Source of the DNA: Anaerolineae bacterium
GTDB lineage: Bacteria; Chloroflexota; Anaerolineae; B4-G1; SLSP01
DNA: 64,000 bases
NCBI GenBank assembly: GCA_034432595.1
Contig: DAOUBT010000004.1
Span: 18,892 to 82,891, forward strand
Direction of reading: 5' to 3'
Shown here: positions 3,001 through 45,445 of the stretch, one piece after another
How the letters are laid out: each line of letters opens with the position of its first letter
Position numbering within the stretch: the first letter of the stretch is position 1
Made by a program: the position numbers and the translations under genes
Notes under the pieces: generated by a model
What the model was told of the DNA's origin: nothing
Database searches by the model: none
Seen by the model: the letters and a program-made list of their open reading frames with translations, nothing else

Positions 3001-6000
3001 CTGGCTCGATCCCAGCGATTACCGCACCAGTCTGGGCCCGGGCACGGGGTACACCGAGACGATTCAAATCACCCTGGGAAGCCTGCAGCTCGGCTGGAGC
3101 CGCATCGTCAGGGTGGATAACGCGGCCTACGTGAACATCGCTCCCAACGGGCGCAGCGCCGGCTTCCAGGTCGGGCCGGGCAAGACAGCGATCATCTACG
3201 TCGTGACTACGCCGCCGCCGGGCACGTTCGCCAGAATGGAAGACCGCCTTACCCTCGGTGTGAATGCCACGCTGTGCGACCGCGACCCGATGGAGCTGAG
3301 CAGTCCGCAGGCCATCGTGCGCGTGCGCGAAGACGACAGCTTCCTCATTGGGCCGGATAATTTCGGCGCGGCGCTGCCGGGGCAAACCATCACCTACACC
3401 CACCGCATCACCAACACCGGCAACTTCACGCAGAGCTTCCGGCTCTTCCCCAAGGCGGGCTTCTACGGCGTCGGACGCATCATCTCGCCCACCGAAGACC
3501 TGTTGCCGCTCAACCTGGGGCCGGGCCAGAGCTACCCCATCACGTTTGCGGTGACGATTAACCCTGAAGCCGCGGGCGGTCTGGTGGACGTGACGAGCAT
3601 CATCGGCCTGAACCAGAATGCGATGCAACGCGCCGCCGCCAACAACACCACCATCAGCTACACCACCGGCGTGCGCTATGTCAGCCCGTCCGGGACCGAC
3701 TCGCTGGTGAATGAAACCATCGGCAGTCAGGACCCGAACGCGGTAGACCTGCCGGACAACAACTGCACGCAGCCGCAGGTCGCCCCGTGCTACAGCCTCG
3801 CCCACGCGCTGCAACAGGCCGCCGCGGGTGATGAAATCCGCTTAGCTACAGGCGTCTACACGCAGGTGATGACGGCCACCTATCAGGCTCAGGTCATCAC
3901 GCAAACCCTGTATGTCGCCAAATCCGTGACGCTGCGCGGCGGCTACGACGCGAGCAACTGGAACAGCACCGACCTGATCACGCCCACCACCCTGCTCAAC
4001 CCGCAAGGGCAGGGCCGCGCGCTGGTGATCCCGGAGGGCGTTACCGTCCACGTGGACCGCATCGCCTTCACAGGTGGACAGGCGGATGCGGGCGGTGCGC
4101 TTTACAACGCGGGCACACTCAAGCTTACCAACAGCCTCTTCTATGGCAACAGCGCCGCCACCGGCGCAGCGCTCTACACGCGCGGCACGCTTAACGCCTG
4201 GAATAACACTTTCTACAACAACTCTGCTGGCACAGGCTTTGGTGGTGGGATGTACATCCTCGCTGGCGAGGCGAACGTGCGCAACAGCATCTTCGCCGCT
4301 AACACGGCCGGGACGGGCAGCGCCGTGCATCGAGCTGGCGGAACGTTCAACTCCGACTACAACCTGTACTGGCAGAACGTCGTTTCCGGTGCGAGCACCG
4401 GCGCTAACGACAAAGTCAATGTAGACCCGCAGTTTGTGGCCACAGCGACCACGCCGCCCAACCTGCGCCTGCGCTCCACCTCGCCGGCGCGCGATGCGGG
4501 CGATCCGGCCACAGACTTCAGCACCTTCCCGCGCGATCTGGGCAACGCCTCGCGGCGCATGGGGCCGCGCGTGGACATCGGCGCTTACGAATACGTCATC
4601 AACATTGGCGCGCGCCTCACGCCGAACTACACGCGCGTCCTGCCCAAGGGCACGGTCATCACCTACACCCACACCCTCACCAACACCGGCGAGATGACCG
4701 ACACCTTCACCCTGAGCTTCAACTCCAGCCTCGGTTGGGGCCAGTTGCTCACGCCCGGGCCCTTCACACTGCCCAGCGGCGCGACAGCTCAGGTGCAGGT
4801 GCGCGTGACGGTGCCGACGGGGAACGTGGGCGGCTTGCAGGACGTGAGCGTCATCACCGCCACCTCACAGGCCGACCCGACGAAGTTCGCCTCCGCGACG
4901 GATAAGACCACGGCGGAATTCATCCCCGGCGTGACCTTCACCCCGAACCACAACACGCCGAACGCCGCGCCGGGCAGCGTCATCGTGTACGAGCACACGC
5001 TCACCAACACCGGCGACGGGCGTGACACCTTCACCCTGAGCTACGAGAGCACGCAGGGTTGGGCTTCCGCGCCGGTACCCGCCAGCGTCACGCTCAACGC
5101 GGGCATGAGCACGACGGTGCGCATCACGGTCACGGTGCCCGCCGGCGCGCTGCAAGGTATGCAGGATACCACGCGCATCACCGCCACATCCGCCTTCAGC
5201 CCGGCGGTACAGGCCGGTGTGGTGGATGTGACCAGCGTAGGCGGCGCGGCGGGTCTGGAGCTGACGCCGACTTCGTACCAGCGCGTGGTGGCATCCGGAA
5301 CGCCGGTTACCTACACCTTCACCGTGACCAACACCGGCAACGCAGCGGATACCATCTCCTTCTCGGCCATCAGTTCGCTGGGCTGGTCCTACGCCATCAA
5401 TCCGCCGAGCCTGTCGCTGAATGCGGGCGCATCCGGACAGGTACAGCTCGTGCTGACTGTGCCGGCCAACAGCGGCGGACAAACCGATGTGACGACCTTC
5501 ACAGCCAGCTCGACCAACACCCCCGGCCTCACCCGTCAGGCGACGGTGACATCCATGGTGCAACCGCAGGCCGGGGCTGAGCTGACCCCGCCCACTCAGA
5601 GCAAGACGGCGCAGGCGGGGAGCACGGTGACGTACACCTACACCGTGCGCAACACAGGCAACGCCAACGCCGCCATCACGCTCGATAAAGCGAACTCGCA
5701 GGGCTGGAACGTCACGCTGAATCCGACGGTGATTGCGAGCCTCGCGCCCGGAGCGAGTCAGACCGTGGTGCTGACAGTGAACGTCCCCGCCACAGCGGAA
5801 CAGGGCGCGACCACCGTCATCACGGCCACAGCGAGCGTGCCCAACGCGCCGAGCGCACGCGCCACCGCCACCGCGCTCACCACCATCCCCCTGCCCGGCG
5901 GCCCCTTGCTGGAGCCTGACCACCCCAACGGACAGGCGACGCCCGGCAGCGTGGTGACGTATGAGCACACGCTCACGAACACCGGCAGCGTGACGGATAC

Positions 6001-8704
6001 CTACACCCTGAGCTACCGCAGCAGTCAGGGCTGGGTGGTGACCTTCGATCCGGCAGGGCCGATTACCCTGGGCGCGGGGGCGAGCCGTACCGTGCTCGCC
6101 ACGCTGAACGTGCCCTCGAACGCGACGCCCGGCACGGTGGACACGACCGTCATCACCGCCACGGCGCAGAGCGACGCGCAACGCTTTGACACGGCGACGA
6201 ATGTGACCACGATTCTCAGCAGCGTTGCGCCGGTGCTCGATCCGGATTACGCGCGCAGCCTCAAGCGCGGAGAGAGCACCGTCTACACGCACACGCTCAC
6301 CAACCCCGGTACCGCTGCCCAAACTTACGCCATCACGATCAGCAGCACGCGCGCCTGGGCGACGTTGCTCACGCCCGCACAGGTGAGCGTGCCGGCGGGC
6401 GGCAGCACACCGGTTGCGGTGCGCGTCACCGTCCCAAGCACGGGCGTCACGCCGGGGATGCAGGACGTGACGACCGTCAGGGCTACGGTGCAGGGCGCGC
6501 CGACGCTTTACGCGCAGGCGGTGGATACGACCACCGTCGCACCGAGCGCCGGGGTGCGCTTCACACCCAACCGCAGTGCCAACGGGGATCCGGAGCAGGT
6601 CATCACGTACACCCACACCATCACCAACACGGGTGATGTGGCGGATACCTTCAGCTTCAGCTACGTCAACAGTACCGCCTGCGCCACCTGGACGGTGAAC
6701 GTACCCGCGCCGGTCACCTTAGCGCCGAACGCGGCACAGGAGGTACAGGTCACGGTGACGATTCCGCCTCTGGCGCCCGCCAACCTGGTGTGCGAAACCA
6801 CGGTCACTGCGGCCTCGCAGCTCGACCCGACCGTGCGCGCCAGCGTGAAGGACACGACCACGGTGAACACGTACCGTGACTTTGTGCTTTACCCGCTGAG
6901 TAAGGAGCGCAGCGCACGGCCCGGTCACATCATGACGCAGACGCTGGTGCTCACCAACACCGGCAATATCCCGGATACATACCTGCTCAACGTGGCGGAT
7001 ACTCCCAACGGCTGGGCCACCTTGACACCAGCCACATCCGTTAGCCTGCAGCCAGGTCAGGTAGCAACCCTCACGCTCACAGTGCAGGTGCCGGCGAGCG
7101 CCCAGAACGGCGCCACACATACCAGCTCGGTGATGGTGACCTCTCAGAGCGATACTACCATGACAGCGACGGCCATCATCACCACCTACATCGTCGAACC
7201 GCCGGGCGTGGCGCTTACTCCTGACCGCACGAACCGACGCGCAGCCGGAGAGACGGTGAATTATATCCACACCATCACGAACACCGGCGCGGCCCGCGAC
7301 GTGTTCAACATCAGCGCGGTCAGTGCCCACGGTTGGCCGGTACAGGCGCCGCAGAGTGTCGTGCTCGCTGCAGGGGAAAGGAAGTCGCTTATCATCGCGC
7401 TCACCATCCCCATGGATGTGATCAGCGACACGGTGGACGTGATCACGCTTACGGCCAGTTCGGATGCGGATGCCAGCGTCTCAGCAACGGTATACGACAC
7501 GACGACGGTGGCGATGCGCGCGGCGATGAGCTTCACGCCAGCTTTCCAACAGGGCGAAACCTGGCCTTCGCAGCCCATCCTCTACACCTTCGTGCTCACC
7601 AACACCGGCAACTATACCGATACCTTTGACCTGAGCAACAGTGTCGCACCCACGGGATGGACGGTCACGGTGGTGCCAAACGTTGCCACGCTGGGCATGA
7701 ATCAGGCGGTGCCGGTTAAGGTGACGGTCACACCGCCGGCAGGCTCAGGCGGCCTACACCATACGGTTACCGTCACTGCGACCTCACGCGCGAGTCTGCC
7801 GGGTGGTCCTGCGTTGATCAAGACTGCCCCTGTGGCCGTTCAGGCGGAGACGTGGGTGAAATTCACGCCGGGCGTGCAACTCAGTCCGGGCGTCCACTCC
7901 ATCGCCACACAGGGAGAGGTGGTCACCTACACCCATACGATCACCAACACCGGCACAGGTGTGGATACCTTCGACCTGAGCGTGGTCTCGTCCCATAACT
8001 GGCCTATCCTGTACCGTCCGCCAGAGCAAATCACCCTGGCCGCGGGTGAGGCGCACGCCTTCAGCGTGGTGCTGAAAGTGCCACAGACAGCTTACAGTGG
8101 GACGTTGGACATCCTTACCATTACCGCACGCTCGACGAGTTTCACCTCCACGGTGGCCACGGCGGAAGACCGTACCCTTGTCCAGGGCACGCCGAGCTTC
8201 CGGCTGTACCTGCCTGTCATCTACCGCGGTTATCCGCCTGACGGCGTGAACTTGATTGTGACGGGCATCCAGATTGGCCCGTTGGACACTCAAGGGACGG
8301 CGGTCATCACCGTGACCACGATGAACATCGGCAATCAACCGGTGGCCTACGGCAACAATTTCTACGTGGACCTGTACATTTTCTATGAGGACCCCTACAT
8401 GCCACCGCCACTGACGGCGGGGAACCGGTACTGGGGCGTGCAGGGCCACTGGTATCAGCCGGGAGCATCGGTCGTCCTGACCACAACCTACTCCTTCCCT
8501 GTGGGCGCCAACTGGACTTTCTACGCTCAGGTGGACACCGATAAACACGTGGTTGAATGGAACGAAAACGATAATGTTTACGGTCCATTGACGCGCTATC
8601 TGGCGCCGCCCGGCGCGGGTATCAACAACCTGAACATGATTCCGCAGATGCCGCGTCCGGTGCCGTTGACCCAGCCGCGTCCGGTGCCGCCGCTCCAGCC
8701 ATAG
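2..8704 (+). CDS. Giant surface/adhesin-like protein, 5'-partial (longer than 2889 aa): right-handed beta-helix Pmp-like repeats (FYxN...GGA[ILV]Y), about 22 DUF11-type repeats (TYTHTLTNTG...DTFTLS), a C-terminal CARDB-like domain and a Pro-rich tail
   Basis: The reading frame is open from position 2, with no stop upstream of the first Met at 35. Dozens of GGALYN/GGAIYV repeats fill the N-terminal 1400 aa. There are then about 22 tandem units of roughly 100 aa with the conserved pattern TYTHTLTNTG-x-DTF-LS...GW...VTVTVP...DVT-ITATS. The C-terminus reads PVPLTQPRPVPPLQP. Confidence 0.85.
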   Translation, partial: NTIFATNTAGTLGDALYSAMAYQPDYNAFFPQAGAVNPEVVPGPHTLYTDPKFINPTAGDLHLANDSPLFDRGDPQTALDHDFDGDLRPADQGYDIGADERRGCWAKNMRTGIIYANPQLAVYASQTNDEIRISVGECRGVHPLTVGGQVLSQTLHITRNLTLSGGWTRDFTQQYAGPFGYPDASERSTTLLPQGLGRALLITNTTMITIERVQMVGGNAAGLGGAALPNAGGNLLYASANGLFTHVDFYQGEAAYGGALYKVSGRLNLADSWNGNNTALTYGGALYNASGPLTVTVVGTGNQAIAGTWYNGNMAGARGGAIYVAGGSVILEDGSAEYKRNTAPSGGAIYVAPGGTLTVTAGSFYTNTAAQLGGALYNAGQAILHGGAFYDNWAGQDGGAFYNAGTASLDLGNRFYWNHAERNGGAIYAGGTFLALRNNVIYINTAQRGAGIYLAAGAPNIWHNTFHQNTASVEGGAIYVGTGAGSALQIKNNIFSENNAPQGKAIFSNRGQLDYNDYWPTDASNQVVGGVGVGSNNPNADPLYVKPGVTQQFHGDFHLQDKSTLIDAGVELGVIRDMDGDPRPSNARPDIGADEVMNCLVKNPRLNKLYGRLVMAVNEAQDGDTLRIAEGVCYENLTLNKALTLDGSWDKVFSSKLEYIATFIDGQNVGRVARVTSPNVVLRDLGLRKGSTQDNGGAVLLESGSSLSLNNVTIRESQAAGNGGGLYVSGGATLDLVDTGFSDNIAQGNGGGLYLADNSTADLYALAAYRNTATLGGGVYIAPNAQVQGFDSAVFGQNVATSNGGGLYNAMPNLELINTRFYENSAQAGAGIYNTGASARVLHGTLHYNVATQQGGALYNLGAGTVVSASIVASNTASTGAGIYGATNVTVDYVVRFANDFYQANGAHIKNADPRFLPNSGHLLYTSPAIDYVPSAASEVNWDYQGIPRPQICAKDAGYREYYVAKRLLTWVDTPNPPLNFADPGVPVTTTFSLRNDSEYWLDPSDYRTSLGPGTGYTETIQITLGSLQLGWSRIVRVDNAAYVNIAPNGRSAGFQVGPGKTAIIYVVTTPPPGTFARMEDRLTLGVNATLCDRDPMELSSPQAIVRVREDDSFLIGPDNFGAALPGQTITYTHRITNTGNFTQSFRLFPKAGFYGVGRIISPTEDLLPLNLGPGQSYPITFAVTINPEAAGGLVDVTSIIGLNQNAMQRAAANNTTISYTTGVRYVSPSGTDSLVNETIGSQDPNAVDLPDNNCTQPQVAPCYSLAHALQQAAAGDEIRLATGVYTQVMTATYQAQVITQTLYVAKSVTLRGGYDASNWNSTDLITPTTLLNPQGQGRALVIPEGVTVHVDRIAFTGGQADAGGALYNAGTLKLTNSLFYGNSAATGAALYTRGTLNAWNNTFYNNSAGTGFGGGMYILAGEANVRNSIFAANTAGTGSAVHRAGGTFNSDYNLYWQNVVSGASTGANDKVNVDPQFVATATTPPNLRLRSTSPARDAGDPATDFSTFPRDLGNASRRMGPRVDIGAYEYVINIGARLTPNYTRVLPKGTVITYTHTLTNTGEMTDTFTLSFNSSLGWGQLLTPGPFTLPSGATAQVQVRVTVPTGNVGGLQDVSVITATSQADPTKFASATDKTTAEFIPGVTFTPNHNTPNAAPGSVIVYEHTLTNTGDGRDTFTLSYESTQGWASAPVPASVTLNAGMSTTVRITVTVPAGALQGMQDTTRITATSAFSPAVQAGVVDVTSVGGAAGLELTPTSYQRVVASGTPVTYTFTVTNTGNAADTISFSAISSLGWSYAINPPSLSLNAGASGQVQLVLTVPANSGGQTDVTTFTASSTNTPGLTRQATVTSMVQPQAGAELTPPTQSKTAQAGSTVTYTYTVRNTGNANAAITLDKANSQGWNVTLNPTVIASLAPGASQTVVLTVNVPATAEQGATTVITATASVPNAPSARATATALTTIPLPGGPLLEPDHPNGQATPGSVVTYEHTLTNTGSVTDTYTLSYRSSQGWVVTFDPAGPITLGAGASRTVLATLNVPSNATPGTVDTTVITATAQSDAQRFDTATNVTTILSSVAPVLDPDYARSLKRGESTVYTHTLTNPGTAAQTYAITISSTRAWATLLTPAQVSVPAGGSTPVAVRVTVPSTGVTPGMQDVTTVRATVQGAPTLYAQAVDTTTVAPSAGVRFTPNRSANGDPEQVITYTHTITNTGDVADTFSFSYVNSTACATWTVNVPAPVTLAPNAAQEVQVTVTIPPLAPANLVCETTVTAASQLDPTVRASVKDTTTVNTYRDFVLYPLSKERSARPGHIMTQTLVLTNTGNIPDTYLLNVADTPNGWATLTPATSVSLQPGQVATLTLTVQVPASAQNGATHTSSVMVTSQSDTTMTATAIITTYIVEPPGVALTPDRTNRRAAGETVNYIHTITNTGAARDVFNISAVSAHGWPVQAPQSVVLAAGERKSLIIALTIPMDVISDTVDVITLTASSDADASVSATVYDTTTVAMRAAMSFTPAFQQGETWPSQPILYTFVLTNTGNYTDTFDLSNSVAPTGWTVTVVPNVATLGMNQAVPVKVTVTPPAGSGGLHHTVTVTATSRASLPGGPALIKTAPVAVQAETWVKFTPGVQLSPGVHSIATQGEVVTYTHTITNTGTGVDTFDLSVVSSHNWPILYRPPEQITLAAGEAHAFSVVLKVPQTAYSGTLDILTITARSTSFTSTVATAEDRTLVQGTPSFRLYLPVIYRGYPPDGVNLIVTGIQIGPLDTQGTAVITVTTMNIGNQPVAYGNNFYVDLYIFYEDPYMPPPLTAGNRYWGVQGHWYQPGASVVLTTTYSFPVGANWTFYAQVDTDKHVVEWNENDNVYGPLTRYLAPPGAGINNLNMIPQMPRPVPLTQPRPVPPLQP

Positions 8705-8764: not shown

Positions 8765-9036
8765 CCCGATATCGAGTCGCCCCATGCGGGTTCAGACATC
8801 AGTAAGGGACCGCGCTCCCACCCGGAGCAGCGCCGGGCATCGCTCCGCCGGGTTTTCAACCGACGATCCTTAACCTTGCGGGCATCCACAAGCTGATCAG
8901 ACGTGGCGGGCGTTGATGAGCACTTGACTATTTAGCCATTTCGGATACTTTTAAGAGGGATGGGTCAACGTCAGCGCGACGTTAACCAGACCTGAAATTG
9001 TACCATGATGGTATCCAACCAATCAAAGGGGGATTT

Positions 9037-9498
9037 ATGCGCAAACTCTTAACCTGGATCGCCTTATCCCTTTTGCTGTTACTGGCGCTTCCGTCCATGT
9101 TGGAGGCCCATCCAGTCTACCAGATCACGCCAACCGGCACACCGCGAGATACGCCCACGCCCATCGGCACACCCACCACGCCGCCGCCGTCGCCGACCAC
9201 GCCGCCACCGACTACGCCGCCGCCGTCGCCGACCACGCCGTCGCCGACCACGCCGCCACCGACCACGCCAACGACGGCGTCGCCCAGTCCGACGAATACG
9301 TCCACCAACACGCCCACTCGCACGCCGACCAAAACGCCGGGTTCATTGCCCTGGACTGGCCTGAGCCTGAACGGTGGCCTTTCCTGGCTGACGGCGGGCC
9401 TTTCCGCCGTGCTGCTGGTGACGCTGCTGATTTCGGTGCGCGTGTTGCGTCATCGTTATTCCCGAAACCCGGAGGAAACCCAAACGGATAAGGATTAG
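9037..9498 (+). CDS. Small secreted PT-rich protein with a C-terminal LPXTG-type sorting signal (LPWTG, then a hydrophobic helix, then RVLRHRYSR)
   Basis: GGGGG ribosome-binding site 5 nt upstream of the ATG at 9037. N-terminal signal peptide MRKLLTWIALSLLLLLALPSMLEA. Pro/Thr-rich linker (PTTPPPSPTTPPP...). C-terminus carries LPWTG, a transmembrane helix and a positively charged tail. Confidence 0.7.
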   Translation: MRKLLTWIALSLLLLLALPSMLEAHPVYQITPTGTPRDTPTPIGTPTTPPPSPTTPPPTTPPPSPTTPSPTTPPPTTPTTASPSPTNTSTNTPTRTPTKTPGSLPWTGLSLNGGLSWLTAGLSAVLLVTLLISVRVLRHRYSRNPEETQTDKD

Positions 9499-11268: not shown

Positions 11269-12540
11269 GTGGAAGCTATCCAACAGCAGATGCAACACCT
11301 CCAGAAGCGACTGGCTGAACTGGAGCGCGAAAAGCAGCACCTGGAAAAGCTGGTACGCATCAGCCGGATGCTGAGCGCCACGCTGGACTTGAATCAACTG
11401 CTGCAAATTATCCTGGATACGGCATCAGAAACCTTAGGGGCAGAATCCACCTCTATCTTACTTGAAGATGCACGCACAGGTGAACTTTACTTCGCCGCCG
11501 CCACCGGTACCCCGGTCGAAGAACTGCGCAAAATTAAAGTACCCATGGAAGGGAGCATCGCCGGGACGATTTACCGCACAGGTGAACCGCAAATCGTCAA
11601 CGACTTCCAGAAGGACCCGCGCCACTTCAAAGGAGTGGATGAGAAAATTGAACACGTCACCCATTCCCTTATCGGGGTGCCGATGGTGGTGCGGCAGCGC
11701 TGTATTGGGGTGCTGGAGGTGGTGAACAAACAAGAGGGGCTTTTTACCGAAGAGGACGTGAGAATCCTCAGCGATCTGGCCGCACAGGCCGCTTTAGCCA
11801 TCGAGAATGCGCGTCTGGTCGCCCGCCTGCGCGAGGCCAATCTGCGCTTGGCCGAACTGGATAAGCTCAAGTCGGATTTTATCAGTATTGCCTCCCATGA
11901 GCTGCGCACCCCTCTAGGCCTCATCCTGGGATATGCCAGCTTTTTACAAGAGCAGGTCTCGGCAGATATGAGCGCACAGGTCGAAATGGTGCTGCGCGCT
12001 GCCACGCAATTGCAAAGCCTCATCGAAACCATGACCAACCTGCAATATCTGGAAAGCGGCGCTTTTCAGCTTAAACGTGAGGAACTGGTGTTGCAGGATA
12101 TCGCCGCCGAGGTGGTGCTGGAGTGGCGCCCCATGGCCGATAACAAACGGCAAACCCTGCGTGAGCGCTACCCCTACAAACCTGTCCGCGTCTTTGCCGA
12201 CCGCTCGATGCTCAACACCATTATCGCTAACCTTTTGCATAACGCGATCAAGTTTACCCCCACAGGCGGCACTATCGAGGTGGCGATTCAAGTGCAAACT
12301 TCGACCGTAGCTGTCAGCGTTACCGATACCGGTCCTGGCATCCCCAAAGAAGACCTGGAACGCATTTTCGAGCCGTTCTATCAGGCGGAAGATCACCTGA
12401 CGCGCCACCATGATGGCCTGGGACTGGGGTTATCGGTTGCCAGGGGGATGGTGGAAAGCCACGGCGGACGCATCTGGGCCGAAAGTGTGCCTGGACGCGG
12501 AAGCCGCTTTGTCTTCACGCTGCCGTTGAAGCCCGGATAA
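11269..12540 (+). CDS. GAF-domain sensor histidine kinase (coiled coil, GAF, HisKA, HATPase_c)
   Basis: GTG start with an AAGGAGGG ribosome-binding site. H-box IASHELRTPL. G-boxes GLGLGLSVARGMVESHGGRIWAES. Confidence 0.85.
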   Translation: MEAIQQQMQHLQKRLAELEREKQHLEKLVRISRMLSATLDLNQLLQIILDTASETLGAESTSILLEDARTGELYFAAATGTPVEELRKIKVPMEGSIAGTIYRTGEPQIVNDFQKDPRHFKGVDEKIEHVTHSLIGVPMVVRQRCIGVLEVVNKQEGLFTEEDVRILSDLAAQAALAIENARLVARLREANLRLAELDKLKSDFISIASHELRTPLGLILGYASFLQEQVSADMSAQVEMVLRAATQLQSLIETMTNLQYLESGAFQLKREELVLQDIAAEVVLEWRPMADNKRQTLRERYPYKPVRVFADRSMLNTIIANLLHNAIKFTPTGGTIEVAIQVQTSTVAVSVTDTGPGIPKEDLERIFEPFYQAEDHLTRHHDGLGLGLSVARGMVESHGGRIWAESVPGRGSRFVFTLPLKPG

Positions 12541-12759
12541 GTAGAACCGTGGGAGTTTCTAAGTATGGTCCGGCTTTTAGCATCGCTCCCCCACCCTGTC
12601 TCAAAAAGCCCTGGTATTTTCCAGTGTCTTCTGCAGTGTGCGGGTTTATTCGACTAAACTCTGACCAACAAGAAACCGTTTTAGCCCAACACGGTGACAC
12701 CCCGATACCCATACCCGAAGCGCCCTGCCTGCGCTCCGTTTGTCTGTAAGGAGGTGGTC

Positions 12760-15096
12760 ATGCGCAAAGTCAGGCTTATCCTGTTCGCCCTGATACTCCT
12801 GCTTTGGATGGAAGGGTTCTCCATCCCGGCACGCGCACAGGCTGATGATGACGCGGCGCTGCTGGAGCGCTATGCCCCGGTCTTCTATTTCCATCCAGAT
12901 GAGTACTTCCGCCCCCAACCCGTGGAGGTGATGCTGCCCGAAGCGCGCCTGCGCCGCAGCTCCCCCTTCTGGTTCGATGTGAACGTCCTGGCTTCGCTCA
13001 ACCTGCGCGATTTCTTAAACCTGCCACCGGAAAAGAGCTTCTTCCTCGACGTGTGGTATGGGAGCGAGGGGAGCGCCGCCACCGATTACACGGCCCACCG
13101 CAGTTATTACCGCGCGCTCCTCAGCCCGGAGGCGGGCGGACCTGAGCCTGCGGTGTACGGACGGGTCCACCGCGACGCGCAGGGCCACATCACCGTGCAG
13201 TATTGGGCGTTCTATTTCTACAACGACTGGTTCAACAAACACGAAGGCGACTGGGAAATGCTACAGGTCATGCTGGACCCCGACGGCACGCCGCGCTGGG
13301 TGGTGTACAGTCAGCATCACGGTGGAACGCGCCGCGCCTGGGAGGATACGCCGCGCTACGCACAGACTCATCCCATGGTGTACGTGGCGAAGGGATCGCA
13401 CGCTAATTATTTCGCCGGCGATGAGAGTTATCCCAACGGCATGACGATTGGCAAGACGCGCGTGGAGCTGCTCGACCGCACCGGTAGCGTGGAGCAACTG
13501 CGTCCGCGCGTCATCCGCCTGCCGGAGCGCGCGGAAGTGGTCGCCAATCCGGCAGCCTGGCCGGGCGCCGAATGGCTGCCTTACCGCGGGCGTTGGGGGG
13601 AAAACGCGCCTCAGGGCGATTTCAGCGGTCCCTATGGGCCAGCGGATAAGGGCACGCAATGGGACGATCCCTACGCCTGGGGCATGGCTCAACCGCTGGA
13701 TGTGGAGGTGTGGTACGCGCACCGCCTGCGCGTGTTCGCCTCTGTGCCAATCAGCGCCACGCTCAATACCGCGCCCGGCGCTTCCCTCGCCGGCGTCGAG
13801 ACGCTCAGCCACGGTCTCATCCTGCACAGCGACCCGCCGGAAGAGGGCGTTGTCATCACCTTACAGGCCGCGCCTGATACCGAGATGGATGTTAGCGCGA
13901 CCTGGCCCGAACGCAGCGCGGCGCGCGTCACGCACTGGAGGTTCGCCAACGTGCGCTTTGATGCCACCGGCACGGCCCTGCTCTTCCTGGGGCCCACATC
14001 CCCCAAAATTGTAGTAGGGCAGATGAGCTACCTGCCCACCACGAGCAGCAGTAACAGCGCCACGTGGGATACTCCCGACCTGGTGTGGATGGGAAGCCTG
14101 CTTACCGCGCAAGAGGTGGCGGTGGGCTTCGGTTGGATTCTCGTCGGCAGCATCCTGCCCGCCCTGGTGCTGCTGGGACTGGTGTATAACCTGGATTATT
14201 ACGAACGCGAACCGAAGCGGCTGGTGTTCTTTACGTTCGTGTGGGGCGCTGTGCCCGCGGTGCTGGTGCTCGTAGGGGCGGCTATCTTCTTCCGCCTGCC
14301 CACCTCGCCCCTGACACGCGAAGCGCATATCGCGTTACGCGCCGGGTTGCTCAGCGCAGCAGCGCAGGAGCTGATCAAGGGCGCAGCGGTGTTTTTCATT
14401 TTCTGGCGCTACCGGCGCGAGTTCGACGGGGTGTTCGACGGCATCGTTTACGGTGCGACGGTGGGGTTCGGCTTCGCCATGATGAGTCAGTTGCTCCGTC
14501 AGCTCAGCGATTTTGTGCTGTGGGGCTTTTCCAGCATGACGTTGGAGACGTGGGCGCAGGGGGTGCTCTTTGCCCTGCATCAGGCCATGTACAGCGCGTT
14601 TTTCGGCGCGTCGCTGGGTTGGGCACGGCTTTCTAATGACCGCAAGGCGCGGGTTTACGTGCCGGTTTTGGGGATGGTGGCCGCCATCGGCGCGCACGGG
14701 TTGCATTTGCGCTGGCTGAACAGCCTGCAAGGGCTGACGCCGGCTTTCGTCGTGCTTTCGCTGGCAGGGCTGTTGTTCACGGTGGGGGTAGGGATATGGG
14801 CTTTGTATCGTCAGCGCGTCTGGCTGGAGGCCATGCTCCCCCAATGGGAGAGCCTGGGGGTGAGCGCAAGTTTGTTGAAGCCGGGACGACGCTGGTGGTA
14901 TGAGACGCGCGCGCTCTTCCGCCATGGGCCGCGCGCCTGGCGCGCGCTGCGGCGCTTCCATAGCTTGCTGATGGAGTGGGCTTTCAAGGCGGAACAGGCA
15001 CGACTCCGCCCCGATGAGGCCGCGCTGGCGCAGGAGGCAGAACAGCTACAGGCGCGCCTGCTCGCTTTGTGGCCGCGCGTCAAGGGATACTTGTAG
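12760..15096 (+). CDS. Fusion protein: N-terminal secreted domain of unknown function (about 400 aa, HEGDWE motif) plus a C-terminal PrsW-like multi-pass membrane protease domain
   Basis: GGAGG 7 nt upstream of the ATG at 12760. Signal/TM sequence MRKVRLILFALILLLWM. C-terminal half has at least 7 transmembrane helices with PrsW-type motifs: QELIKG (EExxK-like), FALHQAMYSAF (FxxxH) and HGLHLRWLN (HxxxN). Confidence 0.65.
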   Translation: MRKVRLILFALILLLWMEGFSIPARAQADDDAALLERYAPVFYFHPDEYFRPQPVEVMLPEARLRRSSPFWFDVNVLASLNLRDFLNLPPEKSFFLDVWYGSEGSAATDYTAHRSYYRALLSPEAGGPEPAVYGRVHRDAQGHITVQYWAFYFYNDWFNKHEGDWEMLQVMLDPDGTPRWVVYSQHHGGTRRAWEDTPRYAQTHPMVYVAKGSHANYFAGDESYPNGMTIGKTRVELLDRTGSVEQLRPRVIRLPERAEVVANPAAWPGAEWLPYRGRWGENAPQGDFSGPYGPADKGTQWDDPYAWGMAQPLDVEVWYAHRLRVFASVPISATLNTAPGASLAGVETLSHGLILHSDPPEEGVVITLQAAPDTEMDVSATWPERSAARVTHWRFANVRFDATGTALLFLGPTSPKIVVGQMSYLPTTSSSNSATWDTPDLVWMGSLLTAQEVAVGFGWILVGSILPALVLLGLVYNLDYYEREPKRLVFFTFVWGAVPAVLVLVGAAIFFRLPTSPLTREAHIALRAGLLSAAAQELIKGAAVFFIFWRYRREFDGVFDGIVYGATVGFGFAMMSQLLRQLSDFVLWGFSSMTLETWAQGVLFALHQAMYSAFFGASLGWARLSNDRKARVYVPVLGMVAAIGAHGLHLRWLNSLQGLTPAFVVLSLAGLLFTVGVGIWALYRQRVWLEAMLPQWESLGVSASLLKPGRRWWYETRALFRHGPRAWRALRRFHSLLMEWAFKAEQARLRPDEAALAQEAEQLQARLLALWPRVKGYL

Positions 15097-15198: not shown

Positions 15199-15756
15199 AT
15201 GCGTCAGGTGTGGAAATGGCTGCTTTTGAGTGTGCTCTTGGGAGCGGGAATGGGTTTGCTGGTCAAAACGCCGGTCAAGGCCTGTTCCTGTATGCCGCCG
15301 GGCGATCCGAAAATAGAGTTGGAACAGGCCACGGCAGTTTTCAGCGGGCGCGTGTACAGCATGGAGGCTTCGGGCGGGGCGCTGTGGGTGCATTTTGAGG
15401 TCTCCGAAGTGTGGAAGGGGCCTTATCAATCCCTGATCACCGTGCGCACGGCAACCGATAGCGCCGCCTGCGGCTACACATTCGCAGAAGGCGTGGAGTA
15501 TCTTGTGTATGCCAACGGGGATACCAATGATTTACAGGTGAACTTGTGCAGCCGCACCCGTCCGCGCATGGACGCCGCCGAGGATATAGGAATCCTTGGA
15601 CCGGGGACACCTGTCAGTCAAATGGAAGGAAGCCCGGCGAAGAACACTTTTGATCCCAACCGGGTGTTGGCGCCGGTGGTGGGGATCCTCAGCGGGGCGA
15701 TTGTGGTGGGCATTTTGCTCGGCGGGTTATTGGATTTCCGGCCCGTGGTACGGTAA
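15199..15756 (+). CDS. TIMP/NTR-like (tissue-inhibitor-of-metalloproteinase-like OB-fold) secreted protein with a C-terminal membrane anchor
   Basis: GGAGG ribosome-binding site. Signal peptide ending VKA|CSCMPP, giving a Cys-x-Cys N-terminus as in TIMPs. TIMP N-domain landmarks: VFSGRV, VWKGP, AACGY, EYLVYANGD, LQVNLCS. C-terminal hydrophobic helix. Confidence 0.7.
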   Translation: MRQVWKWLLLSVLLGAGMGLLVKTPVKACSCMPPGDPKIELEQATAVFSGRVYSMEASGGALWVHFEVSEVWKGPYQSLITVRTATDSAACGYTFAEGVEYLVYANGDTNDLQVNLCSRTRPRMDAAEDIGILGPGTPVSQMEGSPAKNTFDPNRVLAPVVGILSGAIVVGILLGGLLDFRPVVR

Positions 15757-16267: not shown

Positions 16268-16292
16268 TTTTCATCCATCTCAGGGGGTGCGT

Positions 16293-17822
16293 ATGACGTT
16301 TGAAGAACAGTTAGACCTGTACTTGCGGGCGCGGGTCACGCTCATCGTGCTCAACACCATCGAGGAAGAGCGGGCTTTGCAGGCTATCAAGGCGGTGTGC
16401 GAGAAGCAGAAGCGGCCCTGCCTCACCTGGGATGTGGCGGATGGGTTTCAGCTCCTCAGTGGAAATGCCGCACCCCCCGCTTCCGTGCGCGATCCACTGG
16501 GCGCGCTGGAGCAGATTGAGAATGCCGCCGATCCGCCCCTGTTCGTGCTCAAGGACTTCCACGAGTTGTGGAACAATCCGCAGGTGAAACGCAAGTTGCG
16601 CTCGGCAGCGCAAAGGCTGCGCTACAGCAAGAAATCGCTGCTGGTGCTCACGCCAAACGGCAAAGTCCCGCCCGAATTGAGAGATGATGCGGTCATCACC
16701 GAGCTTCCCCCACCCTCCGCCGCCGAGCTGGATGCTGTGCTGGAGCAGCTTCTCAAAACGCCCGGCGTGCGCAACGACCTCACCCCGCTGGGACGCGAAA
16801 AGCTGGTGCAGGCCGCGCTGGGATTGACGCTGGCACAGGCGCAACGGGTCTTTGCGCGCTGCGTGGTGCGCAACGGAACCCTGGATGAGCGCGACATTGA
16901 TGAGGTGACGGAGGAGAAAAAGCAAATTATCCGCGAAAGCGAGGCGCTGGAATTTTACAGTGCCTCCGAGACGCCGGATGATGTGGGCGGCCTGGACGTA
17001 CTCAAACAGTGGTTACGTCTGCGCGAACGCGCCTTTACGCAGGAGGCACGCGCCTACGGGCTGCCCGCGCCCAAAGGTATCGCTCTCCTTGGCATTCCGG
17101 GCACCGGCAAGAGCCTCACGGCTAAAATGATTGGGGGGATGTGGCATCTGCCTCTGCTGCGCCTCGATGTCGGGGCGTTGTTCGGCAGTCTGGTGGGGGA
17201 ATCGGAGGAACGCGCGCGCCGCGCTTTGCGCCTGGCGGAGACGGTGGCCCCCTGTGTGGTTTGGATTGACGAGATGGAGAAAGCGCTTTCGCACGGCGGC
17301 CTGGATAGCGGCACGAGCACGCGCGTCTTTGGCACCATTCTCACCTGGATGCAGGAAAAGACCGCGCCGTGTTTTGTGGTGGCAACGGCGAACGACATCA
17401 GCAGCCTGCCACCCGAATTGTTGCGCAAAGGGCGCTTTGATGAGATTTTCTTCCTGGATTTGCCCACGCAAGAGGAACGCGAAGCTATCTTTGCTGTGCA
17501 TTTGCGCAAACGTAAACGCCTGCCACAGGATTTCGACCTCCACCTGCTGGCCCAACAGTCCGCGGGCTACGTGGGCGCCGAAATCGAACAGGCGATTATT
17601 GACGCGATGTACGTAGGGTTCGATGCCGGACGCGATATTACCACGCAAGACATTCTGGAAGCGCTCAAGCGACAGGTGCCGCTCTCCGTCTCACAGCGCG
17701 AACGCATCGAAGCCCTGCGCGCGTGGCTGATGGAGGGACGCGCGCGCTCGGCCTCCTTCCGCGAATCGCGCGAGGCGCAGCAGCGTTTTGTGCCCATTCA
17801 GCTTGAGGCTTCTGAGGTTTGA
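16293..17822 (+). CDS. Ycf46-like AAA+ ATPase (N-terminal domain plus C-terminal AAA module)
   Basis: Walker A GIPGTGKSLTAKMIGG. Walker B VVWIDEMEKAL. Sensor/Arg-finger region VVATANDISSLPPELLRKGRFDEIFFLDLP. Overall pattern matches cyanobacterial Ycf46-family ATPases. Confidence 0.85.
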   Translation: MTFEEQLDLYLRARVTLIVLNTIEEERALQAIKAVCEKQKRPCLTWDVADGFQLLSGNAAPPASVRDPLGALEQIENAADPPLFVLKDFHELWNNPQVKRKLRSAAQRLRYSKKSLLVLTPNGKVPPELRDDAVITELPPPSAAELDAVLEQLLKTPGVRNDLTPLGREKLVQAALGLTLAQAQRVFARCVVRNGTLDERDIDEVTEEKKQIIRESEALEFYSASETPDDVGGLDVLKQWLRLRERAFTQEARAYGLPAPKGIALLGIPGTGKSLTAKMIGGMWHLPLLRLDVGALFGSLVGESEERARRALRLAETVAPCVVWIDEMEKALSHGGLDSGTSTRVFGTILTWMQEKTAPCFVVATANDISSLPPELLRKGRFDEIFFLDLPTQEEREAIFAVHLRKRKRLPQDFDLHLLAQQSAGYVGAEIEQAIIDAMYVGFDAGRDITTQDILEALKRQVPLSVSQRERIEALRAWLMEGRARSASFRESREAQQRFVPIQLEASEV

Positions 17823-18041
17823 GCATGGGGGAACAAGCTCTGCTCTCCCTGCCTCGCCCCTCGCGGTCAGAGCGCCAAGAGAGGCACGGGCGTTCAAGCC
17901 ATGTTCCGATTGCATCCACCTGAGGCGCGCCGACGAGGTGCGGATGACGATGAGAGTGGCGTTGCACATGGGCGGGCGTTCCGATGGGCTATTCTTTAAC
18001 CCTGCGCGCTTTGCGGCTCAACCGGTGTAAGTGGAGCTACC

Positions 18042-20138
18042 ATGTCCTTGCTTGAAAGCATCCTTTTTGACACCCCCTCACGTTCGCTGCCATGGCGTCT
18101 GTTGCAGCGGCTCCTTGTGCGCTGGGTGGCGCTGAATCCAAAGCCGGTTGAGCTTGAGTTGCTGACGCGCGCCCTTCATCACCCTGATGCGGAGGTGCAA
18201 CGCATCGCCGAACGCGGCCTGCGTCAGCTCAAGCGAGATTACCTCAAAACGCTGGTCTGCCTGATTTGGGCGCGCACGCGCGATCCACGCCTGGAGACGC
18301 TGCTGAGCGAGTTGGGCTGGATAGCCGAAAGGCCACCGGAGGTGCGCGTCCTGACGTTGTTGCTGCAGGGAACGCCGGAGGAGGTGGGAGCGCGCATCGG
18401 CAGCACGATGGTCGAGCCTTTGCTGAAGGCCTGTGAGGATGCGGACCCGCGCCTGGCGGAACGGGCGCGCGCTGCGCTCCTGGCCCTGCGCCGTAAGGAT
18501 GCCCGCGCCGCTCTGTGGACCATCGTCCGCGAGAACGGCCATCCCCTGGCCCTGAAAGCGCTGGCGCAGAGCGGAGAACCGCCCCGAGACGAAAACGAGC
18601 GCGCGTTGTTCTGGTTCTTGCTGGGCCAATGGCAGGAGTATGAGGCGCTGGATTTCGACCGCCGGCGCTTGCGCGCAGTGTACGCCACCGCTTCGGCTGA
18701 GCTGCGCGCGCGCATCCGCGAGCAGTTGCGCGCCGCCGGACGCCCGGACTTCTTAACGGTGCTCACCGGCGGGGAGACGCGCCTGCAGGCCGAGGCGCTC
18801 TCGCCCGCCGAGACGCGCACCGTGCTGGAACTGCTGGTGGGGATGGGCGCATGGCGTGAGGTGTGGGACCTGGCGCTTAAGGTGCAGGTAGCCTGGGGAG
18901 CCTGGGCGGTGGAACGATTGGTCGCCGCCGGCTGGGAGCCTGAGGACGCCGAAGAGCAGGCCCTGTTGCGCACCTTGCACGGCCTGACGCAGGCCGGATT
19001 GCTGGCCGTGCCGGATGAAATCCGGCGGCGGCAGGGTTTGCTCGATTCGCACACGCTCGTCCGCGTGCCGGGACGGGTGAACGATGTGGTCTTCGCGCCA
19101 CGTTCACCCTGGATCGCTGTGGCGACCGGCACACGCCACGCGGTCATCTGGGATTACACGCAGGGCAAGCGCAAGATGTTGCTGGGGAATCATTTCGACC
19201 ACGCGATAGGGAGCGTGGCCTTCACGCCCGATGAGCGGGTGCTGCTGGGGGAACGCACCAATCAAAAAGAGCCGGTGGATTTGTTCCTGTACACCATGCC
19301 CCCGGATAACACCATGCGCCGCCTGGGATCCCATGAGATGATGATAGCGCTGGCCGTCCCCAATGACCGCTGGGCACTTTCGGCGGGACGCGAGGGTCTC
19401 CTGCGCCTGTGGGATTTGGAAGATGGTCGTCTGCTGCAACAGCATGAGACGCAAGGCGACTGGACTCGTCAATTGTGCGTGGTGGACGAAGCGCATGTGC
19501 TCTATCTGGGCCGGCTGATGCGCCTGATAAGCCTGCCGGATTTGAAAGAGCAGAAATGGCGCTTCACCGAGGGGCGCATCACCGCGGCAACGGTGTGCGG
19601 TAAGGATGTGCTGCTGGGACGATTCAGCGGCGAGGTGATCGCCCTCGATCTGAGCGATATGGGCCGTGCGCCGAAGCGCGTCATCAGCAGCTATGAGAAG
19701 GCGGTGGTGGGCCTGGCAACGCTCGCGCGCTATGGATTGGTGTTGAGCGTGGATGGCTCCGGCTTGTTGCGCGTCCTCGATACAGAGACGTATGAGGTGC
19801 GCCACGAACAGCGTATTGGGAAAGGCCGCGCCACCTCGTTACACCTTTCGCCGGATGAGGCTTTCATGGTCCTGGGATTGAGCGAAACGGCCTTCGCGCT
19901 GTTGGATTTGCGCTTCCTGGCCCTGCCGTGGCTCTTTGCCCAACCGTTAGCCCGGCTCGGTCCCGACGAGACGGCGCGCATCCGCTGGCTGGCCGGGCAG
20001 ACCCATCTGCTCCCCGATGTGCAGCGAGCCTTGCAATTTGCGGCGCATATCCTACACTATCGCTGGCGTTACGAAATCGAGCTGGAGCAGGCGCCGGAGC
20101 TGGTCGCAGGAGAGTTCGATATCGAGATTGAGGGGTAA
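18042..20138 (+). CDS. HEAT-repeat plus WD40/beta-propeller repeat protein
   Basis: N-terminal HEAT-like repeats (HHPDAEVQRIAERGL; ACEDADPRLAERARAAL). C-terminal WD-like blades (AVIWDY; LLRLWDLEDGRLL; LLRVLDTETYEV). Ribosome-binding site GGAG. Confidence 0.7.
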   Translation: MSLLESILFDTPSRSLPWRLLQRLLVRWVALNPKPVELELLTRALHHPDAEVQRIAERGLRQLKRDYLKTLVCLIWARTRDPRLETLLSELGWIAERPPEVRVLTLLLQGTPEEVGARIGSTMVEPLLKACEDADPRLAERARAALLALRRKDARAALWTIVRENGHPLALKALAQSGEPPRDENERALFWFLLGQWQEYEALDFDRRRLRAVYATASAELRARIREQLRAAGRPDFLTVLTGGETRLQAEALSPAETRTVLELLVGMGAWREVWDLALKVQVAWGAWAVERLVAAGWEPEDAEEQALLRTLHGLTQAGLLAVPDEIRRRQGLLDSHTLVRVPGRVNDVVFAPRSPWIAVATGTRHAVIWDYTQGKRKMLLGNHFDHAIGSVAFTPDERVLLGERTNQKEPVDLFLYTMPPDNTMRRLGSHEMMIALAVPNDRWALSAGREGLLRLWDLEDGRLLQQHETQGDWTRQLCVVDEAHVLYLGRLMRLISLPDLKEQKWRFTEGRITAATVCGKDVLLGRFSGEVIALDLSDMGRAPKRVISSYEKAVVGLATLARYGLVLSVDGSGLLRVLDTETYEVRHEQRIGKGRATSLHLSPDEAFMVLGLSETAFALLDLRFLALPWLFAQPLARLGPDETARIRWLAGQTHLLPDVQRALQFAAHILHYRWRYEIELEQAPELVAGEFDIEIEG

Positions 20139-43884: not shown

Positions 43885-45312
43885 CTATGGTTTCAACCCG
43901 GCCAGCTCCAACGCCGCGTGGAGGACAGGCTGAACCAGCGCCGCGTCCGTCACCTCGCAGTACACCCGCAACAGGGGCTCTGTGCCGGAGAAGCGAATCA
44001 ACACCCACCCATACTCACCCAGATCGTATTTATAGCCATCCACCGTCACCACGTCGTACACCGGCAGGCCGGCGAGCCGTTCCGGACGCTGTTTTTCAAG
44101 GCGGGCGATCACCTGAGGGCGCAGCTCCGCCGGGAAGCGCGTGTCAATCCGGTCGTAGTGATACGTCTGCCCCAGCACATCGAACAGTTCCTGCATCAAA
44201 GCCGCAGGCGATTTTCGCGCGCGCAGCATGAAATCCACAAAATAGAGATTGCCCAGGATGCCATCCCGCTCCGGCACATTGCCCCGGAAGGCGTAGCCGC
44301 CGCTCTCCTCACCACCGATAAGCGCGTCCACTTCCAGGAATTTCGGAGCGATGTACTTAAAGCCCACGCCCGTTTCGTACACCGGCACACCATAACGCTC
44401 GGCCAGGCGGTTCAACATACAACTTGATGAGAGGGTCTTCACGATAGGGCCGCGCTCGCCGCGATATGCCAGCAAGTAATAGGTGAGCAAGGAGAAGACG
44501 CGCAACTGATCGAGAAAGACACCATGCTCGTCCCCGATGCCCATGCGATCCGCGTCGCCGTCATTGATGAGCAGCACATCCGCGCCCACCTCCGTTGTGC
44601 GGCGCAGCGCCACGTCAATGTTAGGGCGGATAGGCTCCGGGCGCTTCATCTCCGGGAAAATGGGATTACGTCCGGCGTGTACTTCGATAATCCGGTTCGA
44701 TCCGCCCCCTAACAGGCGTGGATACCAGCCAGAGGCATTCCCCCACATTGGCTCCACCAGGATGGTCAGCCCCGCCTGCCGCAAGCGTTCCAGGTCCACC
44801 AGCGTTTGCAGATGCGCCTCATAAGCGGGAGCCGGGTCCCAGCGCTGCACCAGCCCGCTGGCTTCGGCGCGTTCCAGCGGTAGACGGCGCACCTCAGCCT
44901 CGCTGGCGGGGATGAGGGCCTCGATCTGTTTCAGGCCCGCCGGAGCAACAGCGCCGCCATGCTCATCACGCACCTTAAAGCCGTTATCCGTGGGCGGATT
45001 GTGGCTCGCGGTGATATTGATGGCCCCGCCCGCGCCGCGTTCCACCACTGCGTAGCTGATGACCGGCGTTGGCGTGGCGCGATCCGTCAACCAGACGGGG
45101 ATGCCGTTGCCCGCCAGCACCTCCGCGGCGGCTGCCGCAAAATACTCCGACTGAAAACGCTGGTCATAGCCGACGACGCACCCGCGTTCAGCCAGGCCCT
45201 GCTGCTGCAGGTAGAGCGCATAGGCCTGCGCCGCCCGGCGCACGTTCGCAAAGGTGTAATCCTCCGCGATGCGCGCGCGCCAGCCATCCGTGCCAAAAAC
45301 GATATCTCCCAT
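43885..45312 (-). CDS. Alpha-D-phosphohexomutase (phosphomannomutase/phosphoglucomutase family)
   Basis: GAGGAGG ribosome-binding site. Active-site loop [16 protein letters not shown]-terminal GTDGWRA. Confidence 0.85.
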
Positions 45313-45445
45313 AAGGCCTCCTCTTCATCCCCGCGGGGAACATTCCTTGATTCCCTTCAGGCCGGCGGTGAAAGCCACGCCTGAAGGGCGCTTCATGTCG
45401 GACAGGCGTACCCCATGCGGGTATGCACGCCCTGCACACCAGCAG

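Follow-up and report, generated by a model that had tools for sequence, protein, structure and literature searches.

A PrsW-family membrane domain fused to a predicted NLP-fold ectodomain in Anaerolineae, and its TIMP-like neighbour

Layout and spread of the fusion protein

The 64,000-nucleotide stretch of DNA analysed here (the window, from contig DAOUBT010000004.1 of an Anaerolineae bacterium) carries a gene in which a large secreted ectodomain is joined to a membrane domain of the PrsW family, and this fusion gene is followed on the same strand by a gene for a TIMP-like protein (Table 1). The fusion gene occupies the open reading frame (ORF) at 12694-15096 (+), and its start was placed at ATG 12760 rather than at GTG 12694 because the sequence AAGGAGG lies five nucleotides upstream of the former. 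Since the site stands at this distance and the homologues of the fusion protein start at a Met equivalent to ATG 12760, the product of 778 amino acids proposed in the initial annotation is borne out. It begins with a signal peptide, MRKVRLILFALILLLWMEGFSIPARA, predicted to be cleaved before Q, in which hydrophobic residues 6-24 are followed by an A-x-A site whose position is conserved across homologues, and a regular-expression search of all 778 residues found no cysteine. The secreted N-terminal domain with a HEGDWE motif that had been read from this gene is confirmed by the signal peptide and by the motif at residues 161-166, and the claimed fusion of a PrsW membrane domain to a large secreted domain likewise holds, with Pfam matches to PrsW-protease and to the Vps62/DUF946 type. 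At the other end of the protein, the AlphaFold model gives the cytoplasmic tail three helices (H710-722, H724-749 and H754-775) with a predicted local distance difference test score (pLDDT) above 90, and in the homologue alignment A741 of the tail is invariant while E739, F742 and K743 are nearly so.

Table 1. Positions in the window of the features of the fusion gene and of the TIMP-like gene downstream (TM, transmembrane)
Feature	Residues	Position (strand)	Remarks
Ribosome-binding site AAGGAGG		12748..12754 (+)	5 nucleotides before ATG 12760; read from the sequence
Signal peptide	1-26	12760..12837 (+)	...IPARA then QADDD; predicted cleavage site
Predicted NLP-fold / Vps62-DUF946-type beta-sandwich	~27-322	12838..13725 (+)	Extracytoplasmic
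HEGDWE	161-166	13240..13257 (+)	The same in 67/67 homologues; putative equivalent of GHRHDWE in NLPs
Ig-like beta-sandwich, second ectodomain	~323-435	13726..14064 (+)	Based on the AlphaFold model
Seven-TM PrsW-family membrane domain	~450-699	14107..14856 (+)	
QELIKG	536-541	14365..14382 (+)	Counterpart of PrsW EExxK
H646-G-L-H649-L650	646-650	14695..14709 (+)	Counterpart of PrsW HxxxD; family consensus HALHN
Cytoplasmic Arg/Trp-rich helical tail	~700-778	14857..15093 (+)	Conserved AELAFKKMQ-like segment
TIMP-like gene	185 amino acids	15199..15756 (+)	Signal peptide, OB-type domain, C-terminal TM helix at ~155-178

The fusion family comprises at least 312 full-length homologues of ~780 amino acids, and those that carry a taxon label all belong to Anaerolineae/Chloroflexota. 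These homologues occur in many metagenome-assembled genomes (MAGs) of Anaerolineae at identities of 44-76%, and on contigs chosen as one genome per species 43 loci match to query residue 700 or beyond. The family as such is already known to the databases, where many of its members are automatically annotated as 'PrsW family intramembrane protease' and the co-match to Pfam Vps62 is precomputed.

Because sequence searches of the PDB gave no strong match (a single-sequence search with the fusion protein returned nothing at E <= 10), evidence on the fold of the ectodomain had to come from predicted models. In the predicted structure, residues ~27-322 form a central beta-sandwich with flanking helices, as expected of an NLP fold, and the window sequence K-H161-E-G-D164-W165-E166 agrees with GHRHDWE, the heptapeptide of NLPs, in its H, D, W and E, which are identically spaced. 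When conservation was counted in an alignment of 67 homologues, H161, D164, W165 and E166 were each found to be invariant (67/67), together with ~60 further ectodomain residues, many of which are His, Asp, Glu or Arg. HEGDWE would be the residue-by-residue structural equivalent of GHRHDWE. It has been demonstrated that this heptapeptide is crucial for NLP toxicity, that Asp104 and Glu106 of NLPPya directly coordinate Mg2+ in one crystal form, and that the Mg2+ is indirectly involved in binding of the sugar headgroup of the glycolipid receptor (PMC6743777). Furthermore, one recent paper on fungal Vps62-domain proteins has likened the Vps62 motif HVGDWEH to the NLP heptapeptide (PMC13159263). 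A reading of HEGDWE as a zincin motif was rejected, as the sequence is not HExxH and has a Trp at +4. On the other hand, the NLP cytolysins (Nep1-like proteins, toxins of plant pathogens; PF05630; PDB 3GNZ, 5NNW, 3ST1 and 9WSC) show no detectable sequence-profile similarity to the fusion protein, their type-1 disulfide is absent from this cysteine-free protein, and they are secreted, whereas the ectodomain is held covalently on a polytopic membrane domain of the cell that makes it, the host being from a non-pathogenic lineage of Chloroflexota. Lytic activity of the ectodomain is not implied by its NLP likeness.

The initial annotation had named the Vps62/DUF946-type families as possible relatives, and a profile search indeed gave a match, which is marginal in the fusion protein itself (Pfam Vps62, PF06101: 22.8 bits against a cutoff of 22.1, residues 29-57 only) and is backed by stronger matches among its relatives. 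A phmmer search with residues 25-322 against 1.84 billion cluster representatives recovered 3,722 clusters at E <= 1e-3, of which 1,533 remain when the threshold is set to 1e-10, and six of ten sampled relatives with other architectures match Vps62 positions 239-486 with 23.6-44.4 bits in a Pfam scan. Since these matches exceed the threshold, the sequence assigns the ectodomain to the 'HxGDWE' half of Vps62/DUF946. The eukaryotic members of Vps62/DUF946 have no PrsW domain, and the beta-tripod part of the Pfam Vps62 model is not present in the fusion protein (PMC7613979, PMC8624791). The second, Ig-like domain is all-beta in the AlphaFold model (pLDDT 90-97), its sole sequence matches being weak ones to V-set Ig domains (E 0.15-0.45, family profile against the PDB).

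Pairing of this ectodomain with PrsW is found in only a handful of the 3,722 clusters. In Actinomycetota the ectodomain is joined to non-PrsW polytopic membrane domains, with a weak match to the GPDPase membrane domain; in archaea of the Thermoplasmatales and Bathyarchaeia it is joined to other TM domains, and in Chloroflexota it also occurs within large secreted fn3/PD40 proteins. Such non-PrsW fusions were observed at loci L054, L056-L070 and L072-L079 (for example L056, L059 and L060), those in Actinomycetota coming from Gaiellales, Acidimicrobiales and other groups, and the Pfam-scanned Thermoplasmatales protein of L059 has a C-terminal zinc ribbon. The combination of the ectodomain with a non-PrsW membrane domain is a recurrent and undescribed pairing, and the fusion of the ectodomain to such varied membrane domains fits a module working at the membrane surface. 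In the searchable literature, no description was found of an NLP fold for the HxGDWE ectodomain, nor of a conserved fusion between this ectodomain and PrsW.

With regard to the membrane domain, the search against Pfam PrsW-protease (PF13367) that the initial annotation had suggested gave a match well above the gathering score (E = 5.4e-23; 82 bits against a cutoff of 23.5) over residues 484-649 and profile positions 1-170 of 196. Because this match is strong and the score against the PrsW equivalog model of NCBIfam, NF033739, falls under its cutoff (53.9 against 225 bits), the fusion protein is best regarded as a member of the PrsW family and not as a PrsW orthologue. A PrsW-type reference sequence, checked beforehand (322.7 bits over the whole NF033739 model), aligned with the fusion protein in BLASTP at E = 3e-11, with 29% identity over 190 amino acids. 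PrsW of B. subtilis (YpdC), which acts on the anti-sigma factor RsiW as its site-1 protease, thus has a homologous membrane domain, and the two proteins have in common the blocks D-x-Y-E-x-EP, xE-x-x-K and DGIVYGA-x-VGFGFA as well as a His in the penultimate helix. PrsW comprises ~218 amino acids, whereas the fusion protein, with 778, adds a two-domain ectodomain of 420 residues and a cytoplasmic tail of 80. The claim of at least seven TM helices agrees with the full-length AlphaFold model, which has seven long helices, from H450-478 to H661-699, at pLDDT 80-95; a hydropathy scan resolves five distinct TM segments within residues 447-682. The domain belongs to the PrsW / CPBP / APH-1 superfamily, APH-1 being a subunit of gamma-secretase.

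Ovchinnikov et al. (2015) predicted the PrsW active site to consist of EExxK on transmembrane helix (TMH) 3, a His on TMH5 and HxxxD on TMH6, all of them residues that sit on transmembrane helices (PMC4602095), and NCBIfam classes PrsW as a glutamic-type intramembrane protease. The EExxK-like QELIKG noticed by the initial annotation is present (QELIK at 536-540), with E537 and K540 invariant in 67/67 homologues and position 536 occupied by Q in 42, E in 24 and T in one. A gap in the BLASTP alignment puts the EESLK of PrsW four residues away from QELIK, and the register given by the E-x-x-K spacing was used instead as a matter of judgement. E554, D556 and D560 are also invariant. The TMH5 His of PrsW is aligned by BLASTP with Q608, alongside which the window protein has H607, and across the 67 homologues position 608 is H in 39, Q in 16, S in 9 and N in 3. 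Further on, H646, which BLASTP pairs with the His of PrsW LLHGSYD, is kept in 60/67 homologues and H649 in 66/67, while position 650, Leu in the window protein, is N in 34, S in 13, G in 6, L in 5 and D in 3. As E537 is invariant and H649 nearly so, the core Glu and a His are retained. The FxxxH and HxxxN motifs that had also been claimed are absent, as a regular-expression search over the 778 residues found no F...H, H...N, H...D, EE..K or HE..H; the stretches that correspond to them read F604-A-L-H607-Q608 and H646-G-L-H649-L650.

The TIMP-like neighbour and its distribution

The TIMP-like ORF starts 102 bp past the fusion gene on the same strand, in agreement with the distance of about 100 bp first reported, and has a ribosome-binding site of its own, GGGAGGAG; no terminator-like site lies within the 102-bp gap. 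Its signal peptide ends in VKA, directly followed by C29-S-C31, and since an A-x-A site thus precedes a Cys, the mature protein is expected to begin, like TIMPs, with a free Cys. Compared with Pfam TIMP (PF00965), the window protein reaches 16 bits and stays below the cutoff of 23.1; among 47 sampled members of its family, 26 match PF00965 at E <= 0.01 (best 8e-10), and the family profile matches TIMP-2 at E = 1e-7, from Cys1 and over chain residues 1-101. C29, C31, C91 and C117 are invariant in all 47 and align to C1, C3, C72 and C101 of TIMP-2, which suggests signal cleavage and disulfides of the C1-C70 / C3-C99 type. Because the family profile, the invariant cysteines and the predicted N-terminal Cys agree with the N-terminal domain of TIMPs (N-TIMP), the label 'TIMP-like' appears justified. 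Like the vertebrate TIMP-1 to TIMP-4, whose N-terminal domain is the inhibitory one, the family has an N-TIMP-like domain with C1, C3 and their partner cysteines; unlike them, it is without a C-terminal TIMP domain and has a TM or LPXTG anchor in its place.

The TIMP-like family counts at least 966 proteins, mostly surface-anchored, some of which end in LPXTG and others in a plain TM anchor, and the taxon labels of proteins P0121-P0240 include Chloroflexota, Ureibacillus (Bacillota) and an unclassified archaeon. The neighbour belongs to a separate and widespread surface-anchored N-TIMP-like family. In the close clade (window 15649-15756, L001, L081, L082 and L084), the TIMP-like proteins have a common tail, FDPN[RK]-TM-LDFRPxxR, which may be a clade-specific sorting or anchoring signal. 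CPBP-type myxosortases process C-terminal sorting signals, and sortase-like processing of this kind by the PrsW-like domain was considered and dropped, as the FDPN-TM tail is found on only one window protein and the other anchored window protein has an ordinary LPWTG signal. A zinc metalloprotease as target of the TIMP-like protein was also set aside: no metzincin gene adjoins the TIMP-like gene, and the ~20 kb around it contain no ORF with HExxH, the nearest candidate among the large ORFs being a 1,686-amino-acid one at 35202-40262 (-), ~20 kb off, with HEIVH at residue 771. The only other zincin-like motif in the large ORFs of the window is HEQRH, in a 461-amino-acid ORF at 45269-46654.

To what extent the two genes belong together was judged by tblastn and by a hidden Markov model (HMM) of the TIMP-like family, both applied within 6 kb of the fusion gene. 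A TIMP-like copy near the fusion gene was found only in L001, L081, L082/L083 and L084, whose fusion proteins are 72-76% identical to that of the window and whose intergenic gaps measure 26-87 bp. The shared block consists of an aminotransferase, a small ORF, a glyoxalase, a GAF histidine kinase, the fusion gene and the TIMP-like gene; it is collinear with the window in three relatives, L084 showing no gene call for the glyoxalase, and on the short contig of L001 the examination covered only the surroundings of the fusion and TIMP-like genes. As only these 72-76% identical, collinear relatives have the TIMP-like gene, its adjacency to the fusion gene says nothing beyond close relatedness. Another 42 more distant loci reach the C-terminal part of the fusion gene, 37 of them with at least 700 bp downstream, and none of the 37 has a TIMP-family ORF on either side within 6 kb (HMM E <= 1). 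The TIMP-like gene is consequently not syntenic with the fusion gene beyond the close clade, an outcome that the initial annotation had itself named as refuting the pairing, and the adjacency is a lineage-specific gene order. Three TIMP-like genes located on long contigs have unrelated neighbours, with no PrsW and no metalloprotease nearby.

The genes downstream of the fusion gene differ between clades, and an all-against-all clustering of the ORFs from 56 loci found nothing in common except the fusion gene and overlapping-frame ORFs. The upstream histidine kinase recurs in only 9/56 loci, and no sigma or anti-sigma gene is conserved beside the fusion gene. Because no neighbour is conserved across the fusion family, the fusion gene appears to act on its own. 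The kinase of the window, a soluble GAF-HisKA-HATPase histidine kinase at 11269-12540 (+), ends 220 bp upstream of the fusion gene and is collinear in L081, L082 and L084, where the Pfam annotation of the called genes shows no response regulator adjoining it.

Proposed function and alternative readings

Architecture, folds, conservation and taxonomic spread are what the results above show, whereas the binding of a ligand, catalysis, a coupling between the two domains and a substrate are inferences. The reading that we prefer is that the fusion gene encodes a stand-alone envelope protein in which ligand binding by the ectodomain gates a membrane endopeptidase, and the arguments for and against it are, in our judgement, about evenly balanced. 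After export by way of the Sec signal peptide, the NLP / Vps62-DUF946-type beta-sandwich with its invariant H-x-x-D-W-E pocket would come to lie outside, and the Ig-like domain would serve as a spacer that holds this NLP-type cation-pocket domain above the membrane. There the ectodomain would recognise a ligand on the membrane surface; if the NLPs are a guide, this would be a sugar or glycolipid headgroup held through a divalent cation, and its binding would gate, position or feed a membrane-embedded PrsW-type glutamic endopeptidase. The endopeptidase would then cut a single-pass membrane protein, as PrsW does with the anti-sigma factor RsiW, and the conserved tail on the cytoplasmic side is a possible holding site for the substrate or for a partner.

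Several findings weigh against this proposal. The kinship with NLPs derives from a predicted structure (pLDDT 78) and a motif; Pfam NPP1 (PF05630) has no match in the fusion protein at E <= 0.1, and a PDB search with the family profile brought up no NLP chain at E <= 10. In addition, the dense invariant His, Asp, Glu and Arg residues of the ectodomain would also fit an enzyme in place of a sensor. In the membrane domain, three of the five PrsW motif positions differ in the window protein, where the first Glu, the TMH5 His and the Asp of HxxxD are replaced by Q536, Q608 and L650, and the TMH5 His position varies throughout the fusion family; because of these departures, catalysis by the membrane domain, though plausible, is not certain. 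Among solved structures, the best matches of this domain are APH-1B and TMEM147, both of which are non-catalytic scaffolds, and no substrate candidate was identified. These matches also support the main rival explanation, according to which the seven-TM domain serves as a non-catalytic anchor or scaffold in the manner of APH-1 or TMEM147 and the function lies with the ectodomain, which might for instance bind or enzymatically modify glycoconjugates of the membrane or cell wall in a cation-dependent way. This view, which we consider possible though rather unlikely, is also in line with the poor conservation of the TMH5 His and of the Asp/Asn of HxxxD, with the Q that stands for the first Glu in 42/67 homologues, with the invariant polar residues being far more numerous in the ectodomain than in the membrane domain, and with the attachment of the ectodomain to unrelated membrane domains in other phyla, just a handful of its 3,722 clusters being paired with PrsW. 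However, the invariant E537, K540, E554, D556 and D560 and the near-invariant H649 are hard to explain for a mere anchor, and the Pfam PrsW match is strong. APH-1 and TMEM147 are scaffolds of eukaryotic complexes with 10-14% sequence identity to the membrane domain and, unlike them, the fusion family has an invariant E537-x-x-K540 that follows the predicted active-site EExxK of PrsW (PMC4602095).

The other explanations concern what the fusion protein might act upon or be controlled by. The initial annotation had seen in the two genes a protease with its inhibitor or regulator, the TIMP-like protein acting as a bound inhibitor of the PrsW-like product of the upstream gene. It is true that they lie on the same strand, 102 bp apart and with a gap free of terminator-like sites, that the adjacency is retained in four relatives with gaps of 26-87 bp, that both proteins are exposed on the outer face of the membrane and that the cysteines of N-TIMP, namely the predicted free N-terminal one and those of both disulfide pairs, are preserved in the TIMP-like protein. 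Nevertheless, the search with the TIMP-family HMM came back empty within 6 kb at 37/37 distant fusion loci, the four loci that do have the gene are too similar (72-76% identity, collinear) to be informative, and other TIMP-like genes adjoin unrelated genes. TIMPs inhibit metzincins through Cys1, which blocks the zinc site, and the fusion protein has neither HExxH nor any other zinc-protease site. Its ectodomain has a predicted NLP fold and not that of a protease, and the PrsW active site is predicted on transmembrane helices (PMC4602095). With synteny failing and a zinc-protease motif lacking, the inhibitory pair is not upheld, and we regard it as very unlikely. The same neighbour could alternatively be the substrate of the PrsW-like protease, a C-terminally anchored protein shed from the membrane in this clade only. 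PrsW-type proteases cut single-pass membrane proteins, for example RsiW (PMC4602095), and the window TIMP-like protein has one C-terminal TM helix, ends in the conserved clade tail FDPN[RK]-TM-LDFRPxxR and is plausibly co-transcribed with the fusion gene. Moreover, it has been shown in Listeria that an anchored TIMP-like lipoprotein is cleaved and released by an adjacent protease (PMC8235301). That protease, however, is a secreted metzincin and not an intramembrane one, and the pairing is missing from the rest of the fusion family, so that shedding could not be its ancestral or general function; the substrate reading is improbable on these grounds. As the Listeria Mtz-Tim precedent consists in the release of an anchored TIMP-like protein, a clade-specific substrate relationship would still be slightly more attractive than inhibition.

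The Mtz-Tim pair of Listeria monocytogenes is the only described case of a bacterial protease gene adjoining a gene for a membrane-anchored TIMP-like protein (PMC8235301), and it differs from the present locus in several ways. Mtz is a secreted zinc metzincin, whereas the protein next to the TIMP-like gene in the window is a non-zinc fusion of the intramembrane protease type, and the pairing occurs in one clade only. Tim resembles TIMPs in predicted structure only and has an N-terminal lipid anchor, and the pair is of phage or mobile-element origin (PMC8235301); by contrast, the window TIMP-like protein is a sequence homologue of N-TIMP and is anchored C-terminally. It has also to be asked whether the NLP-like domain is a cytolytic toxin, exported and then freed by self-cleavage through the fused PrsW-like domain, since the ectodomain has the predicted fold of the NLP cytolysins and a published proposal holds that polymorphic toxin domains fused to a PrsW-like peptidase are exported and that the peptidase cleaves them (PMC3239186). 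In the published toxins, however, the toxin domain is C-terminal to the PrsW domain, an order that is reversed here. Toxins are patchy and fast-evolving, whereas the fusion family is spread over many Anaerolineae MAGs at 44-76% identity with dozens of invariant ectodomain residues; furthermore, no immunity-like neighbour is conserved, and a protein with no Cys has no NLP type-1 disulfide. A released toxin accordingly seems to us extremely improbable.

Beyond the preferred reading of a ligand-gated envelope protein, a wider and distinctly doubtful extension is that the HxGDWE ectodomain is a hitherto unrecognised prokaryotic counterpart of the NLP toxin fold, serving as a cation-dependent sensor of the membrane or cell surface, that the fusion proteins, with their PrsW/APH-1-type domain, form a new class of ligand-gated intramembrane proteases in Anaerolineae, and that one clade has recruited a membrane-anchored N-TIMP-like protein as substrate or modulator. 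If this were true, the NLP cytolysins would represent a secreted branch within a much larger family of modules, most of them membrane-tethered (3,722 clusters). As proteins in which a PrsW-type domain is permanently joined to a large and highly conserved ectodomain with a putative ligand pocket, the fusion family would lend itself to studies of signal input into intramembrane proteases of this class. The predicted NLP fold also ties the Vps62/DUF946-type family, a large one with bacterial, archaeal, fungal and plant members, to toxins with a defined cation/sugar-headgroup pocket, and this link yields a testable biochemical hypothesis for the Vps62/DUF946-type domain. The N-TIMP-like family, for its part, is large in prokaryotes. 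The significance of these points is independent of the proposed protease-inhibitor pairing.

Other features of the window

A giant ORF at 35-8704 (+), of at least 2,889 amino acids, is cut off by the left end of the window. In L081 and L084 the orthologues reach ~4,860 amino acids, with a Pel9A-like beta-helix and Ig-type repeats, and the ORF probably encodes a huge surface protein. This ORF is followed at 8998-9498 (+) by a gene for a secreted, Pro/Thr-rich protein of 166 amino acids, the C-terminal end of which combines LPWTG, a TM helix and a basic tail, a predicted sortase-type cell-wall anchor signal in a Chloroflexota genome. Downstream of the TIMP-like gene, the region 16287-20138 (+) encodes a 511-amino-acid AAA+ ATPase and then a 698-amino-acid WD40 beta-propeller protein. 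The AAA+/WD40 pair recurs on the downstream side in L081, with a further WD40 protein after it, and may represent a conserved module.

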